In this document: positions 1 through 5,032 of the stretch, one piece after another | Numbering within the stretch: the stretch's first letter is position 1 | Layout of the letters: every line of letters begins with the position of its first letter | Virus record (IMG/VR): IMGVR_UViG_2698536335_000005 | Location: 1-5,032 of that record | Length of the DNA stretch: 5,032 nucleotides | Source: a virus | Taxonomy: Duplodnaviria; Heunggongvirae; Uroviricota; Caudoviricetes | Direction: 5' to 3' (one strand) | Made by a program: the position numbers and the translations under genes | The notes under the pieces: generated by a model | The model's database searches: none | Told to the model about the DNA's origin: nothing | The model's input: only the letters and a program-made list of their open reading frames with translations

Positions 1-1629
1 GGTGCAGACTTTTTCCACTTCCTGTTGCGCCACTGGTTCAGGCTGTTTCGTTTCTGGCTCGTTTTGTAACGCATTTGGGCTGTTTTGTTCCGCTTTTTGG
101 TAGTTCCGTTCCGATTCATGCTGGTTCTGGTTTACAGAATCGCGGGTCTGGATCCCCTTAACCCATTTCGGATCATTCGGGTCGCTAATCCCTGCAACAA
201 ATTCTCCGCGAGAGGCAGCAAGCAACTTATCGGCGTCAGGCTGGCTGATATTGGCTGCCTGCATAATTTTGTTTACTTCGTCAGCGGTAACTTTTACCGG
301 CTCTGGTTGTGCGGTCGTGTCAGATGCACCAGTATTTTGTTGTGAACCTGAGTATGTACTGTTTTTGCGGGCGAAATATTCTTCTTTCGTGATTTCAGTA
401 GCCCCGGCAGCCAGTGCCTTATCCAGACCAGAAAGTTTGTTTGCGCGACCGTATTTTTCGCCATCCTTGTCGGTGAAGAGGAAGTAGAACGGCCCCTCAC
501 GCTCTACAGATGGTTCGACTTCCACTTTGCATTCGGTTTTTTCGTTGTCCGGAATTGCCGTTTCCACTGCATCAGTTTCTGGTACTGGCGACGAGAGAGT
601 ATCAGTTGCGCTCTGATTTGTTCCTTCATCTTCAAACACGCCCTTTGTAGTCAGGTATTCAGTAATGTATTTGTTCAGTGCCACAGGGTCTTTGTGAATG
701 TCGATCGGACGTTCACGGACAAGGCCAAAAATAGTCTGGCGGTCGTAGCGAAGGGCATCAGGCTGTTTGCGCATTGATGAGTTGTCGATAACTTCATTTT
801 TTGCCCAGCGATGGATGCTGCCGTCAATGTTTCCGGCATCCACATCACCAGGCCAGAGAGCGTAGGCCAGTTCGTCATCCAGTGTTTTCCATGTCTGCTT
901 GTATTCGCGATGAATGGCAGCAATGACCAGGCTGATTTTTCCTGTTGAATTTTCAGTGTGCTGTTGATTGACTCTGGCGCGGGCGAGATCAACAACAGAC
1001 GTGTATTTTCCGGTTTCCTTGCGTTCACCTTCGCGACGTTTTTTCCAGATGCGCATCTCTGCCTGAATTTCGGGCCATTTGGCACCAGGCTTACATTTAT
1101 GCTTAACCCACCCGATGGCATGCAGCTTAAGCTCCGGATACATGGCGTTAACTTCTGGCATTTTCATCAACGCTTCAACGATATGTCCGTTGAATGTTGC
1201 CATGTCTTCCTGCAACAATTCCTGTGCGCTAATAACCATATCAACGGTGATGTTTTCACATGTGTCGAACTTAACCATGAGAGCGTTCTGTACTTCAGGG
1301 GCCAGCTTGTCAAAAGTGACGTTCATCAGATCGGATTCAGTCTCAACCGGGACAAAAGAAGCAGAATCCTCATCCCAGCGGTTTTCCTGCATATATTCAG
1401 CATCCCATGAATCGAGGGCAGGGCGGGGTATGCCAGGTTTATCCTCGCAGATAATAAATTTATAAGCGCAGTCCTGAGCAGCCGGATAATGTTCCAGGAA
1501 TTGCCAGTGAAATTTTGCTCGAGCACGGCGTTCGTCGCCAGCTTCAATAGCTGTGGCTACAGCCACAGCGCCTTCTTCCCTTGTTGCCAGTTCGTCAGGA
1601 ATGGCGGCGCAAATAAAGACTTTACTCAT
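1..1629 (-). CDS. recE: RecE-like exodeoxyribonuclease VIII, N-terminal 543 codons; 3' end lies beyond the window start
   Basis: ATG at 1629..1627 (MSKVFICAAIPDELATREEG...) is preceded by GAGG 10 nt upstream and an in-frame TAA just upstream. The frame is open to position 1; I spot-checked it by hand at 1-60, 121-240, 301-360, 481-540, 601-660, 841-900, 1201-1260 and 1601-1629. The ORF track omits it, presumably because it has no stop in the window. The stretch PDADKLLAASRGEFVAGISDPNDPKWVKGIQTRD (about 121-240) matches my recollection of the E. coli RecE middle region, and an acidic Pro/Glu/Gln-rich linker (TAQPEPVKV, ETKQPEPVAQQEVEKV) fits RecE. Position at the distal end of the early-left operon is as expected for a recombination module. 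Confidence 0.75.
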   Translation of the reverse strand, partial: MSKVFICAAIPDELATREEGAVAVATAIEAGDERRARAKFHWQFLEHYPAAQDCAYKFIICEDKPGIPRPALDSWDAEYMQENRWDEDSASFVPVETESDLMNVTFDKLAPEVQNALMVKFDTCENITVDMVISAQELLQEDMATFNGHIVEALMKMPEVNAMYPELKLHAIGWVKHKCKPGAKWPEIQAEMRIWKKRREGERKETGKYTSVVDLARARVNQQHTENSTGKISLVIAAIHREYKQTWKTLDDELAYALWPGDVDAGNIDGSIHRWAKNEVIDNSSMRKQPDALRYDRQTIFGLVRERPIDIHKDPVALNKYITEYLTTKGVFEDEGTNQSATDTLSSPVPETDAVETAIPDNEKTECKVEVEPSVEREGPFYFLFTDKDGEKYGRANKLSGLDKALAAGATEITKEEYFARKNSTYSGSQQNTGASDTTAQPEPVKVTADEVNKIMQAANISQPDADKLLAASRGEFVAGISDPNDPKWVKGIQTRDSVNQNQHESERNYQKAEQNSPNALQNEPETKQPEPVAQQEVEKVCT

Positions 1630-1724
1630 TTTGTTTTAACCTCATGACAGATTTCAAGGTGAACGAATCCCTGCCATTGCTGGCATTTTTAATCCGTTGG
1701 TATGGTGTTAATATGGCTGGAGGG

Positions 1725-1913
1725 TTATCCAGCCGGTGTTTCGTTATTCAGGTACAGCGATACTTTTTTTAGCGGGAGGCATTCACCAGAAATTTTTTGC
1801 TCGTCTCTTGCCTGGAGGCAGGATTCTTTACTTGCATAAATTCCGGTAATCACATTCTGTGATTCACCCGTTATAAGAAAAACCGTCATCATCAGTGCAA
1901 ATGCTGAAGTCAT
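1725..1913 (-). CDS. ydfD: YdfD-like small membrane (lysis-type) protein, 62 aa
   Basis: ORF-track ORF MTSAFALMMTVFLITGESQ... with a hydrophobic N-terminal segment. Its ATG (1913..1911) overlaps the dicB stop as ATGA, and GGAG lies 7 nt upstream. Size and position immediately after dicB match ydfD of the Qin dicB operon (63 aa). The symbol is assigned by synteny and size, not by recognised sequence. Confidence 0.6.
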   Translation of the reverse strand: MTSAFALMMTVFLITGESQNVITGIYASKESCLQARDEQKISGECLPLKKVSLYLNNETPAG

Positions 1914-2098
1914 TGACGTTCTCCGAAAATACCAAGTTCAAGAAGAGCAATTCGGGAAAGTATGGAATTATCATTGAGCAGATAAGGCTCATATTTCCTC
2001 ATATTAATGGCATCTTCAGTAAACTCCCGGTTACTGAGCAGAACACCAATATCAAAACAACCTTCAGACGTATTAACGTTTGGTAATAACGTTTCCAT
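1910..2098 (-). CDS. dicB: cell division inhibitor DicB (MinC-activating), 62 aa
   Basis: ORF-track ORF METLLPNVNTSEGCFDIGVLLSNREFTEDAIN...; the N-terminus matches my recollection of E. coli DicB (METLLPNVNTSEGCF...) and the length is exactly 62 aa. GAGGA lies 7 nt upstream of the ATG. It sits about 180 nt downstream of the DicF-like terminator, as in the Qin dicB operon. Confidence 0.85.
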   Translation of the reverse strand: METLLPNVNTSEGCFDIGVLLSNREFTEDAINMRKYEPYLLNDNSILSRIALLELGIFGERQ

Positions 2099-2276
2099 TA
2101 TCGCGTCCTCAACAATGAATTTTGTGATGCAGTGCCTGGTGCCTCCAGGTGACGTTAACCAGTTAACAATTAACGCCGGATTAGTTGATGCTCGTTACGC
2201 CCGTAAAATACCGCCTTACTGCTTTAACTGTTCCGCGTGCGCATAGCCGCATTCACCGCATCACAAAATTCACTTT

Positions 2277-2302
2277 AAAAAGGGCGGATATCCGTTTCCG
2301 CC
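2277..2302 (-). terminator. Rho-independent terminator (DicF 3' end), partial terminator inside the leftward operon
   Basis: On the minus strand a 6-bp GC-rich stem GGCGGA/TCCGCC (plus 2283-2288 and 2297-2302) with an 8-nt loop is followed directly by CUUUUU (plus 2277-2281 is AAAAA). There is no U-tract on the plus-strand side, so it is orientation-specific for leftward transcription. Confidence 0.6.
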
Positions 2303-2316
2303 GAATCACCAGAAAA
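2277..2316 (-). ncRNA. dicF: DicF-like small RNA (ftsZ-targeting family) embedded in the dicB operon
   Basis: Minus-strand RNA reads UUUUCUGGUGAUUCGGCGGAAACGGAUAUCCGCCCUUUUU. The 5' UUUCUGGUGA and the 3' CCGCCCUUUUU terminator match what I recall of E. coli DicF. No ORF is present, and the location (upstream of dicB, downstream of ydfC) is that of dicF. The 5' boundary is approximate because the RNA is processed from a longer transcript. Confidence 0.55.
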
Positions 2317-2617
2317 GTGATAACAGAGGGCGTTGCAGCGGGGTTGTCACTTAAGCGTATGGTCAACCTGACAACCCGGTGTCCTCAGCGGGGAAGGAAT
2401 AACCCCGCCATACTTACCGCCGCGCCATTTCGCGGATTGCCACAACCGGAAGCGCACGGTCGAATTAAATTTAACGACTACCTACAGAGAGACGAACTTC
2501 GCCGTGCGCTTTCGCGTTATGCCCTGACTTTTCAGGGATATATCCTTTTCAGTAAACTGTCAGTGCCGGATTCTTATCCGTGTCCGGCGCACGCACTCTA
2601 CCTCACCTGTGAATAAA

Positions 2618-2992
2618 TTAATGATTAATTGATATTTTGTTGTTTGATTCAACTTTCCCATCGGATGTGTGATGCTTTAAATCACAGGAATTAATACTGC
2701 TTGCTGTAAAATGATTTTCAAGGGGAGCTATTCGAATCCCTTTCTTTTTCATTAACAAGCCAAATCCTTTATTAATGATGTTCATTAATTCCAGGAAGTA
2801 TTTTTCATGTAAATTCTGGTTATCAGAGAGCTGCTTCTCTTCGCACAGACCGATAAAGGCACGACGCACGTTACCGGATATAGTATCGATGGTTTCTTTT
2901 TCTACGGTACTCAGGTCAAGAGTCGCCAGTTGGGAACGAACTATATTCGCTGCCATTTCCTGGAATTGCATTGGTAAATCTTTAAATTCCAT
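2618..2992 (-). CDS. hypothetical protein, 124 aa, with AT-rich 3' half; possible moron inserted between ydfC and DicF
   Basis: ORF-track ORF MEFKDLPMQFQEMAANIVRSQLATLDLSTVEKETIDTISGNVRRAFIGLCEEKQ... GAGG lies 6 nt upstream of the ATG at 2992, and the gene is co-oriented with the operon. The 5' part has ordinary GC content, while the 3' roughly 180 nt is very AT-rich and encodes a low-complexity tail (KKKGIRIAPLENHF...NNKISINH). I recognise no family. Confidence 0.5.
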   Translation of the reverse strand: MEFKDLPMQFQEMAANIVRSQLATLDLSTVEKETIDTISGNVRRAFIGLCEEKQLSDNQNLHEKYFLELMNIINKGFGLLMKKKGIRIAPLENHFTASSINSCDLKHHTSDGKVESNNKISINH

Positions 2993-3014
2993 TATTAGCC
3001 TCGTTGGTTAGCTA

Positions 3015-3233
3015 TTAACGCGGGTATGTAATCATTCTGGCAATGCTTAATGCCGCTGCTTTTTCCAGATTAGTGATATCCTGCTCCAGAGCGGACAGAT
3101 TTTCAGCCTGCTTAGCCCTGGCTTCATTGGCCCATTTCAGATCCTGCGCTGCATTAATTTTCTGGTGCATCCACTCATAAAGTTCATCATCGGTATAGTC
3201 TGGCGCGATGATGACGGGTTCTCGTTTCTGCAT
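3015..3233 (-). CDS. ydfC: YdfC-like small protein, 72 aa
   Basis: ORF-track ORF MQKREPVIIAPDYTDDELYEWMHQKINAAQDLKWANEARAKQ... with GAGGAA 6 nt upstream of the ATG. Length (72 aa) and the 29-nt gap after the preceding ydfB-like ORF match the Qin ydfA-ydfB-ydfC arrangement as I recall it. Symbol by synteny and size. Confidence 0.65.
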   Translation of the reverse strand: MQKREPVIIAPDYTDDELYEWMHQKINAAQDLKWANEARAKQAENLSALEQDITNLEKAAALSIARMITYPR

Positions 3234-3262
3234 ACTGATTCCTCGCGGTGCTGTTTCGCTTA

Positions 3263-3391
3263 TCAGCCGTTAGATTTTGCCGAACTGGAAAGCGCCTGTT
3301 TAAATTCGTTGAAGCTGAGAGCTTCTTCGCCTTCGGCAAGACCTTCGAAGTATTCTTCGTAAGCCTTTTCCATGATTGTGTCGAAATCCAT
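3263..3391 (-). CDS. ydfB: YdfB-like small acidic protein, 42 aa (below the ORF-track size cutoff)
   Basis: Hand translation of the minus strand: ATG at 3391..3389, MDFDTIMEKAYEEYFEGLAEGEEALSFNEFKQALSSSAKSNG, stop TGA at 3265..3263. AGGTGA lies 5-6 nt upstream, and the ATG is 1 nt after the ydfA-like stop (TGAtATG), indicating translational coupling. The 42-aa length matches Qin ydfB. Confidence 0.55.
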   Translation of the reverse strand: MDFDTIMEKAYEEYFEGLAEGEEALSFNEFKQALSSSAKSNG

Positions 3392-3392
3392 A

Positions 3393-3548
3393 TCACTCAC
3401 CTGAGTTTCTTTCCAGCCAGCGACGGGCACCATTTTCGGTTTTAAACGTTTTGCTTTTGGTATACGTCATCGCGGTGAACGTACCGTCCTGGTTGGGGAA
3501 CACGCCACATACCAGAGATTCGCTGTTGCCAAGATCGATAGTATCCAT
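3393..3548 (-). CDS. ydfA: YdfA-like small protein, 51 aa; alternative upstream start at 3629 would give 78 aa
   Basis: The ORF-track ORF 3393..3629 is 78 aa, but the internal ATG at 3548..3546 (MDTIDLGNSESLVCGVFPNQDGTF...) has GAGG 5 nt upstream and yields exactly 51 aa, the Qin ydfA length. The 3629 start has GAGG about 9 nt upstream and cannot be excluded from sequence alone. Confidence 0.6.
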   Translation of the reverse strand: MDTIDLGNSESLVCGVFPNQDGTFTAMTYTKSKTFKTENGARRWLERNSGE

Positions 3549-3730
3549 GCTGACCTCATTTCCCCTTAACGCCGGGGTAGCGGAACAAAAACCTGCTGCA
3601 TAGTTATTAAAGTTGAACCCTGCCGTCATGTTCTTACGCCTCGGGCTGGCTACTTAACCCCTGACCACTGCCTGGTAACTCGAAGTATTGCCCTGCATTC
3701 TGTGGGGCGGGGTGGGTTGGTATGAAAAGA

Positions 3731-3759
3731 AGGATACCCATAGGTATTTAAAAAGTAAA
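3731..3759 (-). promoter_or_regulatory. candidate sigma70 promoter for the leftward operon (pL/pdicB-like)
   Basis: On the minus strand: -35 TTTACT (plus 3754-3759), 17-nt spacer, -10 TATCCT (plus 3731-3736). The predicted start near 3723-3725 leaves a leader of roughly 95 to 175 nt depending on the ydfA start. Both flanking operator copies overlap the -35 side and the spacer/-10. Confidence 0.4.
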
Positions 3760-3771
3760 TACCCATGGGTA
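3735..3771. promoter_or_regulatory. OL-like operator pair: TACCCATAGGTA (3735-3746) and perfect palindrome TACCCATGGGTA (3760-3771)
   Basis: Two 12-bp dyad-symmetric sites with centres about 25 bp apart overlap the leftward promoter. The same motif recurs in the repressor/cro intergenic region. Confidence 0.55.
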
Positions 3772-3813
3772 AATTTTTGCGGTGTCTTAACTGGTGACTA
3801 GTTGTTTGGTGAG

Positions 3814-4233
3814 CTATGATGCGTTTTGTGCTTTCTTTTTACGGATTTCTTCGTAGATCATATTGTAATACTGTTTTTTCTCTTCAAGAGTTTTTAATAA
3901 TTTATCCGCTTCACTTTCTGGCAGTTCGTCTAAGAGATCTAAAAAAATACGTTGTCGTGGCGTTAGAACCCTTGTTTCATAACTGGAGGCTGTGTTCGTT
4001 GATGATGAAACGATACCATCCATCCATCCCCGGGGTAACCCAAAGGACTCTTCGATAATCTCCACCATATCATCAGCGATCCGTTTTTTTCCCTTTTTCC
4101 CCTCTGGGTACAACATTCTTGATACATAAGAAGGCTCGCGCCCGATCTTTCTGGCCACGTTAACCGCTTTACCATCGCATTTCTCATCACGAATTTTGAT
4201 GAGTTGCTGTCGTCTAAATTCATATTTGTCCAT
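3814..4233 (-). CDS. prophage immunity repressor, XRE/cI-type N-terminal HTH, 139 aa, no LexA-like peptidase domain
   Basis: ORF-track ORF MDKYEFRRQQLIKIRDEKCDGKAVNVARKIGREPSYVSRMLYPEG... with an HTH-like segment near residues 20-40. It is divergent from the cro-like gene and co-oriented with the leftward operon, which is the cI/DicA/RacR position. At 139 aa it is too short for an S24 autocleavage domain. No SD precedes the ATG, consistent with a leaderless transcript. Confidence 0.75.
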   Translation of the reverse strand: MDKYEFRRQQLIKIRDEKCDGKAVNVARKIGREPSYVSRMLYPEGKKGKKRIADDMVEIIEESFGLPRGWMDGIVSSSTNTASSYETRVLTPRQRIFLDLLDELPESEADKLLKTLEEKKQYYNMIYEEIRKKKAQNAS

Positions 4234-4304
4234 AGGTAAATAATAGATGCGATTACCGCAAGGTAAACAACCTGTGGGTATTGACTTTTGTTTACCTGTG
4301 GGTA
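4227..4304. promoter_or_regulatory. OR-like tripartite operator: TGTCCATAGGTA (4227-4238), AACCTGTGGGTA (4269-4280), TACCTGTGGGTA (4293-4304)
   Basis: Three copies of the OL motif (9-10 of 12 matches to TACCCATGGGTA) lie between the divergent repressor and cro-like genes. The 4227-4238 copy overlaps the repressor start codon. The other two flank and overlap the rightward -35 and -10. Confidence 0.5.
4240..4267 (-). promoter_or_regulatory. candidate pRM-like promoter producing a leaderless repressor mRNA
   Basis: On the minus strand: -35 TTTACC (plus 4262-4267), 16-nt spacer, -10 TATTAT (plus 4240-4245). The -10 ends 6 nt before the repressor ATG at 4233, so the predicted start falls at or next to the ATG, and no SD is present. 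Confidence 0.4.
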
Positions 4305-4308
4305 TTCT
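4282..4308 (+). promoter_or_regulatory. candidate pR-like promoter for the cro-like/ydaT operon
   Basis: -35 TTGACT at 4282-4287. The best -10 is TATTCT at 4303-4308 with a short 15-nt spacer, so the -10 assignment is uncertain. It lies between and over the two right-hand operator copies, about 25 nt upstream of the ydaS-like RBS. Confidence 0.35.
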
Positions 4309-4333
4309 TTGCTGTGTTTACTAAGGAGTAGCT

Positions 4334-4615
4334 ATGGAAGAATTAAGAATATTTCTCAATTCTCTTTCGTCAGATGAACAGCGTATGTTTGCATGCGAGT
4401 GTGGTACCAGCATCGGTTATCTAAGAAAGGCATTGAGTAAAGGTCAAGTGTTAGGGGCATCGTTATGTGTCCTTATTGAGCGAGCCAGTAATGGTGAAGT
4501 TACACGTCAGCAACTAAGGCCTTTTGATTGGATGAATATTTGGCCCGAGCTGGAAGATACCAAAACGTTAACACAACCACTTTCTAGGAGCTTGATTCAT
4601 GAAAATCAAGCATGA
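4334..4615 (+). CDS. ydaS: Cro-like HTH regulator, YdaS family, 93 aa
   Basis: ORF-track ORF MEELRIFLNSLSSDEQRMFACECGTSIGYLRKALSKGQVLGASLCVLIERASNGEVTRQQLRPFDWMNIWPELED... AAGGAG lies 5 nt upstream of the ATG. The motif IERASNGEVTRQQLRP...WPEL resembles the YdaS/Cro family as I recall it. It is divergent from the repressor, in the cro position. Confidence 0.75.
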   Translation: MEELRIFLNSLSSDEQRMFACECGTSIGYLRKALSKGQVLGASLCVLIERASNGEVTRQQLRPFDWMNIWPELEDTKTLTQPLSRSLIHENQA

Positions 4616-5024
4616 ACACATCCGCATGGCGATGAATGCCTGGGCGCGTCCTGATGGCGAAAAAGTTCCAGCAGCTGGAATAACCCAGGCTTATTTTGAG
4701 TTGGGTATGACGTTCCCAGAACTGTATGACGACAGCCATCCGGAAGCCCTGGCTCGCAATACCCAGAAAATTTTCCGCTGGGTAGAGAAAGACACCCCTG
4801 ATGCTGTTGAAAAAATGCAGGCTCTGTTACCGGCGATCGAAAAGGCGATGCCGCCTTTGCTGGTGGCCCGTATGCGCAGCCACAGTTCTGAATATTACCG
4901 TGAGATCGTCGAACGGAGGGATCGGCTGGTGAAGGATGTCGATGATTTTGTTGCGTCAGCGGTTGTTTTGTATGACCAGATGAATCGCGGCGGCCCGGCA
5001 GGGAATGCTGTGGTGATGCACTAA
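4599..5024 (+). CDS. ydaT: YdaT-family protein (cII-position early regulator, toxic on overexpression in Rac), 141 aa
   Basis: ORF-track ORF MKIKHEHIRMAMNAWARPDGEKVPAAGITQAYFELGMTF... AGGAG lies 8 nt upstream of the ATG, and the gene overlaps the 3' end of the ydaS-like gene by 17 nt. The MKIKHEHI start and roughly 140-aa size match my recollection of E. coli YdaT. Stop TAA at 5022-5024. Confidence 0.75.
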   Translation: MKIKHEHIRMAMNAWARPDGEKVPAAGITQAYFELGMTFPELYDDSHPEALARNTQKIFRWVEKDTPDAVEKMQALLPAIEKAMPPLLVARMRSHSSEYYREIVERRDRLVKDVDDFVASAVVLYDQMNRGGPAGNAVVMH

Positions 5025-5032
5025 AAGCACGG

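Follow-up and report, generated by a model that had tools for sequence, protein, structure and literature searches.

A compact natural allele of dicF upstream of dicB in a lambdoid prophage of Escherichia coli O157:H7, probably acting mainly as a terminator and processing module

DicF in K-12 and the corresponding slot in an O157:H7 prophage

DicF is a textbook prophage sRNA and is tied to the virulence of EHEC via pchA, on which Melson and Kendall are said to have validated a DicF pairing site in 2019. In Rfam the DicF sRNA is family RF00039, and the form encoded by the Qin prophage of K-12 is 53 nt long. It derives from a dicBp transcript: cleavage by RNase III sets the 5' end of a 190-nt species, cleavage by RNase E that of the 53-nt species, and both end at the dicF terminator; the operon gives terminated (ydfABC-dicF) as well as read-through transcripts (PMC10448788). 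Compensatory mutations assigned the ftsZ contact to the 3' region of DicF and the xylR contact to its 5' end (Balasubramanian et al. 2016, PMC5069750), and the DicF23 mutation hits both ftsZ and pykA (PMC5069750). Pairing with manX was placed at the DicF 3' end by Azam and Vanderpool (PMC5861419). In reviews, EHEC is credited with four dicF copies.

The window analysed here is a 5,032-nt stretch of viral DNA (IMG/VR record IMGVR_UViG_2698536335_000005, positions 1 to 5,032), and coordinates refer to it unless another source is named. The original prediction, made from the letters of the window, was that a DicF-like sRNA with a conserved 5' seed and its own terminator, shorter than the K-12 form, lies at 2277-2316 on the minus strand, in the position that dicF holds relative to dicB. 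The minus-strand sequence is exactly as had been quoted: the plus strand of 2277-2316 reads AAAAAGGGCGGATATCCGTTTCCGCCGAATCACCAGAAAA and its reverse complement UUUUCUGGUGAUUCGGCGGAAACGGAUAUCCGCCCUUUUU. When the K-12 ydfC-dicB interval was aligned with the minus strand of the window, this element (2277..2316, minus; also aligned to K-12 dicF itself) filled the dicF slot, with flanks near-identical to K-12 for upwards of 150 nt in either direction and 183 nt to the dicB start compared with 174 nt in K-12, which bears out the predicted position relative to dicB. Because slot and flanks match K-12 in the alignment, the element is, as judged by position and flanking sequence, a true homologue of dicF, and a chance look-alike is excluded on the same grounds.

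The 521-nt stretch used for testing is 100% identical to prophages of E. coli O157:H7, mainly from UK cattle isolates. RefSeq annotates an identical locus (L001) in the order repressor, ydfA-like, ydfB, ydfC, a 124-aa hypothetical protein, a 520-nt unannotated gap, dicB, a DUF1482 (ydfD-like) gene, exonuclease, xis and int, and K-12 Qin has the matching order ydfA-ydfB-ydfC-dicF-dicB-ydfD. The element belongs to the early-left (dicB) operon of a lambdoid O157:H7 prophage. Mapped from L001, which is 100% identical, the genes on the minus strand are ydfA-like at 3393-3548, ydfB at 3263-3391, ydfC at 3015-3233 and, between ydfC and the dicF region, the 124-aa hypothetical (WP_000394532.1) at 2618-2992, which has no Pfam match and is missing from K-12 Qin. 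On the other side of the element, a spacer conserved in the alignment (2099..2276, minus) separates the terminator from dicB (62 aa; 1910..2098, minus), the gene directly downstream, which was identified by Pfam DicB at 125.5 bits and by the RefSeq annotation of the identical locus. The ydfD-like DUF1482 gene (62 aa; 1725..1913, minus; Pfam 54 bits, and RefSeq) comes next, and the exonuclease gene that follows it leaves the window at its start. RefSeq treats the DUF1482 gene of L001 (6708-6898) as a frameshifted pseudogene; in the window, the 62-aa ORF at 1725-1913 is uninterrupted and matches the Pfam model over its full length.

Three further observations concern the neighbourhood. The Rfam family STnc100, a Salmonella sRNA candidate family, gave a sub-threshold match at 2066-2284 (minus; 31.2 bits, threshold 47, E=4.6e-4), and this family may possibly be just the dicF-dicB spacer of prophages. 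A 16-bp inverted repeat, TACCCATAGGTATTTA...TAAATACCCATGGGTA (3735-3771), lies in the interval from the repressor gene to ydfA, and the repressor/cro intergenic region holds two direct CCTGTGGGTAT repeats with related half-sites (4262-4300); the inverted repeat and the CCTGTGGGTAT repeats are probably operators of the 139-aa repressor.

Architecture, predicted processing and predicted target pairing of the compact element

The element begins with a free 5' arm, UUUUCUGGUGAUUC (2303..2316, minus), delimited by the K-12 alignment and by folding. A terminator hairpin follows (2283..2302, minus), in which GGCGGA (2302-2297) pairs with UCCGCC (2288-2283) in a 6-bp stem with five G-C pairs, closing an 8-nt loop, AACGGAUA (2296-2289). 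The last segment (2277..2282, minus) is a C and then a U5 tract, the same as in K-12, and marks the 3' end of the transcript as predicted by scan and alignment. RNAfold gave -10.7 kcal/mol for the 39-mer, with the first 13-14 nt free, a single hairpin, and then C and U5, and a simple terminator scan picked up the same hairpin at 2302..2283; between them these support the terminator-like hairpin that had been predicted. Over a 61-nt stretch the fold has a z-score of -2.2 relative to shuffles. The element shares its operon strand with ydfC and dicB, and a GC-rich stem-loop with a U-tract on the transcribed strand, downstream of genes, is what is expected of an intrinsic terminator, here as a prediction.

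A coding explanation was rejected, as the overlapping ORFs on both strands (37 aa and 143 aa) are without a Pfam match and are unannotated in the identical RefSeq locus. The 10-mer TTTCTGGTGA was found three times in the window at one mismatch or fewer, twice exactly, where shuffles expect about 0.4; the second exact copy is at 1783-1792 (minus), in sense orientation within the ydfD-like (DUF1482) CDS of the same operon. Two exact copies in 5 kb are beyond the chance expectation, yet may be a coincidence.

On the annotated K-12 boundaries (UUUCUGG...CCGCCC), the mature RNA would be the 34 nt from 2315 to 2282, with the U-tail extra, compared with 53 nt in K-12; the 19 nt missing correspond to gaps of 2 and 17 nt. 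The element is thus shorter than the K-12 form, as predicted; the length of about 40 nt that had been given for it needs correcting, since it counts one extra 5' U and the U-tail. What the compact and K-12 forms have in common is nt 1-10, UUUCUGGUGA, the stem base GGCGG/CCGCC and the tail CUUUUU. They differ at K-12 nt 11-15, where CGUUU is replaced by UUC, and in the hairpin apex, where the 27 nt UAUCAGUUUUACUCCGUGACUGCUCUG of K-12 are replaced by the 10 nt AAACGGAUAU, and the 20-mer GGCGGAAAUGGAUAUCCGCC is specific to the compact form. The compact hairpin is calculated to be weaker (-10.7 vs -15.9 kcal/mol for K-12), which might change read-through into dicB. The likeness to DicF did not extend to a significant match to the Rfam covariance model: there was none at E<=1 over the full window, and a 171-nt scan gave 16.6 bits (E=0.18) where the gathering threshold is 48. 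Scores with this model are graded, from 76.7 bits for the K-12 control through 43.5 for a third class, described below, to the 16.6 of the compact form.

The processing sites of K-12 DicF can be mapped onto the window from the published K-12 ends, and both processing hairpins are conserved. A hairpin homologous to the K-12 RNase III stem-loop lies at 2422..2455 (minus; from alignment and folds, the cut position being calculated from the 190-nt length), and the U-rich RNase E site maps to 2311-2316. The latter falls in a small predicted precursor hairpin, AUCACU/GGUGAU (2305..2321, minus), whose U-rich loop contains the position homologous to the RNase E-made 5' end of K-12 DicF; that end was taken from annotation and PMC10448788, and we infer cleavage at the homologous site here. 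Because the RNase III hairpin and the RNase E site are both conserved, species of ~171 nt and of 34-40 nt are plausible.

The ~140 nt upstream of dicF (2317-2460, minus; 1740-1882 in the K-12 locus, L002) are almost identical in K-12 and this prophage, fold into several hairpins in prediction and are the body of the 190-nt DicF species of K-12. In another haplotype the hairpin GGCGGGG...CCCCGCU is swapped for CUGGGGC...GCUCCAG, which would preserve the stem, and this swap suggests a conserved RNA structure. In a consensus folding of the precursor over 91 haplotypes, one divergent hairpin was misaligned by MAFFT, and the pair counts were not used. The minimum-energy fold of the long form of K-12 pairs an upstream GGCGGUAAGUAUGGCGGGG with the 3' half of DicF (L002 1776-1796 with 1913-1934), a predicted long-range duplex that is impossible in the compact allele; as an alternative to the terminator hairpin, the GGCGGUAAGUAUGGCGGGG-DicF duplex could be an antiterminator or an RNase III substrate.

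Target pairing was calculated with windowed duplex energies and opening energies for both partners, which is a simplified home-made scheme and not IntaRNA. Plain RNAduplex was dropped because its duplexes were unrealistically long and opened the terminator hairpin. Applied to K-12 DicF, the scheme reproduces the published 3'-region and 5'-end assignments, and it puts pykA at the hairpin apex. For ftsZ, K-12 nt 32-53 pair with the site at -28..-7 at -8.0 kcal/mol, and the best value for the compact form is -2.2 kcal/mol at +15..+26, off the ribosome-binding site. For pykA (K-12 nt 26-43, site -18..+1, -12.3 kcal/mol) the compact form has nothing at the ribosome-binding site, and for manX (K-12 nt 35-54, site +35..+53) the energy goes from -12.0 kcal/mol to -0.4. 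Pairing with xylR is halved, from -13.4 kcal/mol over 10 bp (K-12 nt 6-15, site +9..+20) to -6.6 over 6 bp; xylR is the sole one of the four targets that uses the 5' end, and nt 11-15 of its region are altered here.

In these predictions the compact form has lost the complementarity of the DicF 3' region to the ftsZ ribosome-binding site as well as the complementarity to pykA and manX, with that to xylR reduced. The conserved seed of the original prediction stands in so far as the first 10 nt are kept. It is not the region that pairs with ftsZ, as that part lies in the 3' region and is what has been removed, and the pairing with the ftsZ translation initiation region that had been suggested was not recovered by the calculation. 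Because the replaced apex bears the residues that pair with ftsZ and manX (published) and with pykA (calculated), the compact allele would be unable to repress ftsZ, pykA and manX in the manner of K-12 DicF and is probably no division inhibitor.

Distribution, classes and constraint

With a 52-nt probe centred on the element, the compact form was found at 524 places in 441 of 5426 complete E. coli genomes (94-100% identity), and the canonical form at 6402 places in 3969 of these genomes. Compact copies occur in prophages with different repressors and at different integration sites (ompW, yccA and serU-mtfA). In strain Sakai the serU prophage is Sp14, in which the compact allele, with U in the loop, is located at NC_002695.2 2,707,679-2,707,715 between ECs_2767 and dicB (ECs_2768), and Sp14 also bears pchC, tccP and espJ. 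The compact form is present in E. albertii too. Because it is found in 441/5426 genomes, with differing integration sites and repressors, in Sakai Sp14 and in E. albertii, the compact allele is by this sequence survey an established form and not a one-off error. The isolated phage genomes in INPHARED gave no match to it, and a full-text literature search for the compact sequence found nothing. RefSeq annotation was dropped as evidence, as it has no ncRNA over the compact copy, nor over canonical dicF in nearly all genomes outside K-12. Loose-pattern matches in unrelated viral and bacterial contigs were discarded, being without the flanks.

Scans of IMG/VR that were anchored on the flanks and left the element unconstrained returned exactly three classes, canonical, compact (50 loci, 7 alleles) and one that we call alt. 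The alt class is 51 nt long, UUUCUGGUGACGUUUGGCGGCAUCUGUUUGCCCAUGAACUGAUGUCCGCCC, with 24 IMG/VR loci (including L020 1566-1619 (minus), L008 and L102), and is carried by 290 of the 5426 E. coli genomes, largely O157:H7. Its hairpin loop reads UUUGCCCAUGAA vs UUUUACUCCGUGA, and its Rfam DicF score of 43.5 bits is slightly below threshold. It has the same slot, flanks and stem base as the compact form, and in both the loop with the CUCC for pairing to the ftsZ Shine-Dalgarno is missing; unlike the compact form, alt has its 15-nt 5' arm complete, and with it the entire predicted xylR pairing, and retains a two-tier hairpin architecture. The predicted pairings with ftsZ, pykA and manX are absent from alt, and that with xylR is kept.

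Genomes of O157:H7 have 5-6 dicBF-type loci, and in UK O157:H7 genomes closely related to the window the counts fit six dicF-type sites, of which about three are canonical, one is alt and two are compact. We infer that the compact copies are not among the four recognised dicF copies of EHEC.

No change in the arm UUCUGGUGA, which covers the conserved 5' end UUUCUGGUGA, was seen in 219 of the 222 flank-anchored loci of the three classes. Constraint was examined in 43 unselected compact loci, where none of the 15 nt before the stem (one flanking C and the 14-nt arm) segregates, compared with 2/12 sites in the stem, 2/8 in the loop, 1/6 in the tail and about 40% of sites in the 120-nt flanks. The common alleles AAACGG, AAATGG and AAATGA (then ATAT) differ in the loop only, and two of the three rare stem variants retain a wobble pair. 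This pattern fits selection on arm and hairpin, and does so weakly, as the flanks also hold long invariant stretches; furthermore, the precursor hairpin, in which the arm pairs with the upstream AUCACU, could alone account for the conservation of the arm. Variation among the compact loci was too low to show any covariation in the hairpin. The compact element was found on at least two flank haplotypes.

Possible functions and their meaning for EHEC

We consider that the element is probably, if by no means certainly, a trimmed natural dicF allele that serves mainly as a terminator and processing module upstream of dicB. What remains of dicF would act as an intrinsic terminator or attenuator and as an RNA 3'-end and processing module between the ydfABC-side genes and dicB, releasing at most a 35-40-nt RNA and a ~171-nt precursor, with the 13-14-nt 5' arm as the sole pairing surface. 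An attenuator role is supported because the dicF terminator of K-12 yields both terminated and read-through transcripts (PMC10448788). Against a terminator role, intrinsic terminators with a stem of just 6 bp and a loop of 8 nt tend to be among the weaker ones. The invariant arm, moreover, could reflect selection for a trans-acting function and not for processing. Nothing is listed at this position in the Hfq-crosslinking table for Sakai, an absence that carries little weight because repression is the normal state of the operon.

Two described groups are comparable. The 3'-UTR and intra-operon sRNAs such as SroC and CpxQ (reviewed in PMC9438474) share the predicted logic of a terminator within an operon, a processed 5' end and a short single-stranded seed, but they are experimentally shown and 58-163 nt long, whereas the compact element is shorter, is predicted from sequence and has reduced Hfq-binding features. 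The attenuating terminators of lambdoid early-left operons likewise consist of a GC-rich hairpin and a U-tract, here placed between early genes and dicB, exonuclease, xis and int. A difference from those systems is that the window yielded neither an N-type antiterminator nor a nut site.

A different function for the same RNA is possible, though we hold it to be rather doubtful: RNase E cleavage and termination would release a 35-40-nt Hfq-dependent sRNA that acts via its 13-14-nt arm on fewer targets. Such an RNA would spare ftsZ, pykA and manX, making it a natural separation-of-function DicF, and among its effects might be an activation of PchA/B/C, virulence regulators of EHEC, through pairing over their anti-Shine-Dalgarno site. 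The arm is predicted to be single-stranded, and its invariance (219/222 loci, with no segregating site in 43 compact loci) would be in keeping with this, although that conservation can also be explained by the precursor hairpin. In the predicted structure of the pchC mRNA, the Shine-Dalgarno region pairs with UCACCU at +12..+17 (the anti-Shine-Dalgarno), and the arm pairs over it with UGAUCACC(UGGC)AGAA, +9..+25, at -9.9 kcal/mol compared with -8.8 for the K-12 arm; a second pchC site at +93..106 gives -10.7 vs -8.5 kcal/mol for the K-12 arm. The energy at the pchC anti-Shine-Dalgarno is however weak, -5.2 kcal/mol, once accessibility is counted, and the U-rich stretch before the terminator that aids Hfq binding in K-12, ACGUUU, is cut to AUUC. 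An RNA of 35-40 nt is also unusually short for an Hfq-dependent sRNA. In favour of a link to virulence, pchC, tccP and espJ lie on the same prophage, Sp14, and according to reviews DicF activates pchA via an anti-Shine-Dalgarno in the coding region (PMC7769764). On the modelled pairings, the compact allele might retain pch activation alone.

It is unlikely that the element is a decaying remnant, in which an internal deletion would have disabled dicF, not even the terminator would be under selection, and the neighbouring genes would carry the copy along. The 5-6 dicBF-type loci of each O157:H7 genome provide a redundancy that would permit decay, the toxicity of overexpressed DicF (PMC5069750) could favour loss, and the compact form is absent from the isolated phages of INPHARED. 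Nevertheless, almost all of the ~50 IMG/VR copies retain an intact stem and U-tract, their common variants affect loop or tail, and a wobble pair survives in two of the three rare stem variants. The downstream dicB is intact at every locus inspected, and the presence of at least two flank haplotypes and of two species argues that the form has persisted and recombined and has not eroded. Least probable by far is that the element is equivalent to K-12 DicF and inhibits division via the ftsZ translation initiation region: it shares the slot, the first 10 nt and the terminator base, but the ftsZ-pairing residues (K-12 nt 32-53 as predicted; the '3' region' in PMC5069750) are absent, the best ftsZ energy falls from -8.0 to -2.2 kcal/mol and shifts off the ribosome-binding site, and the Rfam score is 16.6 bits against a threshold of 48.

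If the compact element is the terminator and processing module preferred here, and terminator only, the result is an ordinary one, a toxic sRNA gene trimmed back to a structural role. A wider view, which is speculative and which we think has only a small chance of being correct, is that the apex of the dicF terminator is an exchangeable cassette that sets specificity and exists in three or more natural versions (canonical for ftsZ/pykA/manX, alt, and a compact near-null), and that O157:H7 would carry diversified DicF paralogues and not 'four copies of DicF'. The compact copy (Sakai Sp14, and a second copy in the UK lineage) would then be an unrecognised extra member, consisting of the arm only, that could open the pch anti-Shine-Dalgarno and promote virulence genes without the toxicity associated with ftsZ/pykA/manX.

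The main bearing of the compact allele is on the genetics of DicF in EHEC. Counting of dicF copies by homology or with Rfam would miss the compact class, and deletion of the recognised dicF copies would still leave a strain expressing the shared 5' arm, provided that the compact RNA is made. The compact allele is also a ready natural separation-of-function mutant, with which effects of the 5' arm of DicF may be told from those of the hairpin apex.
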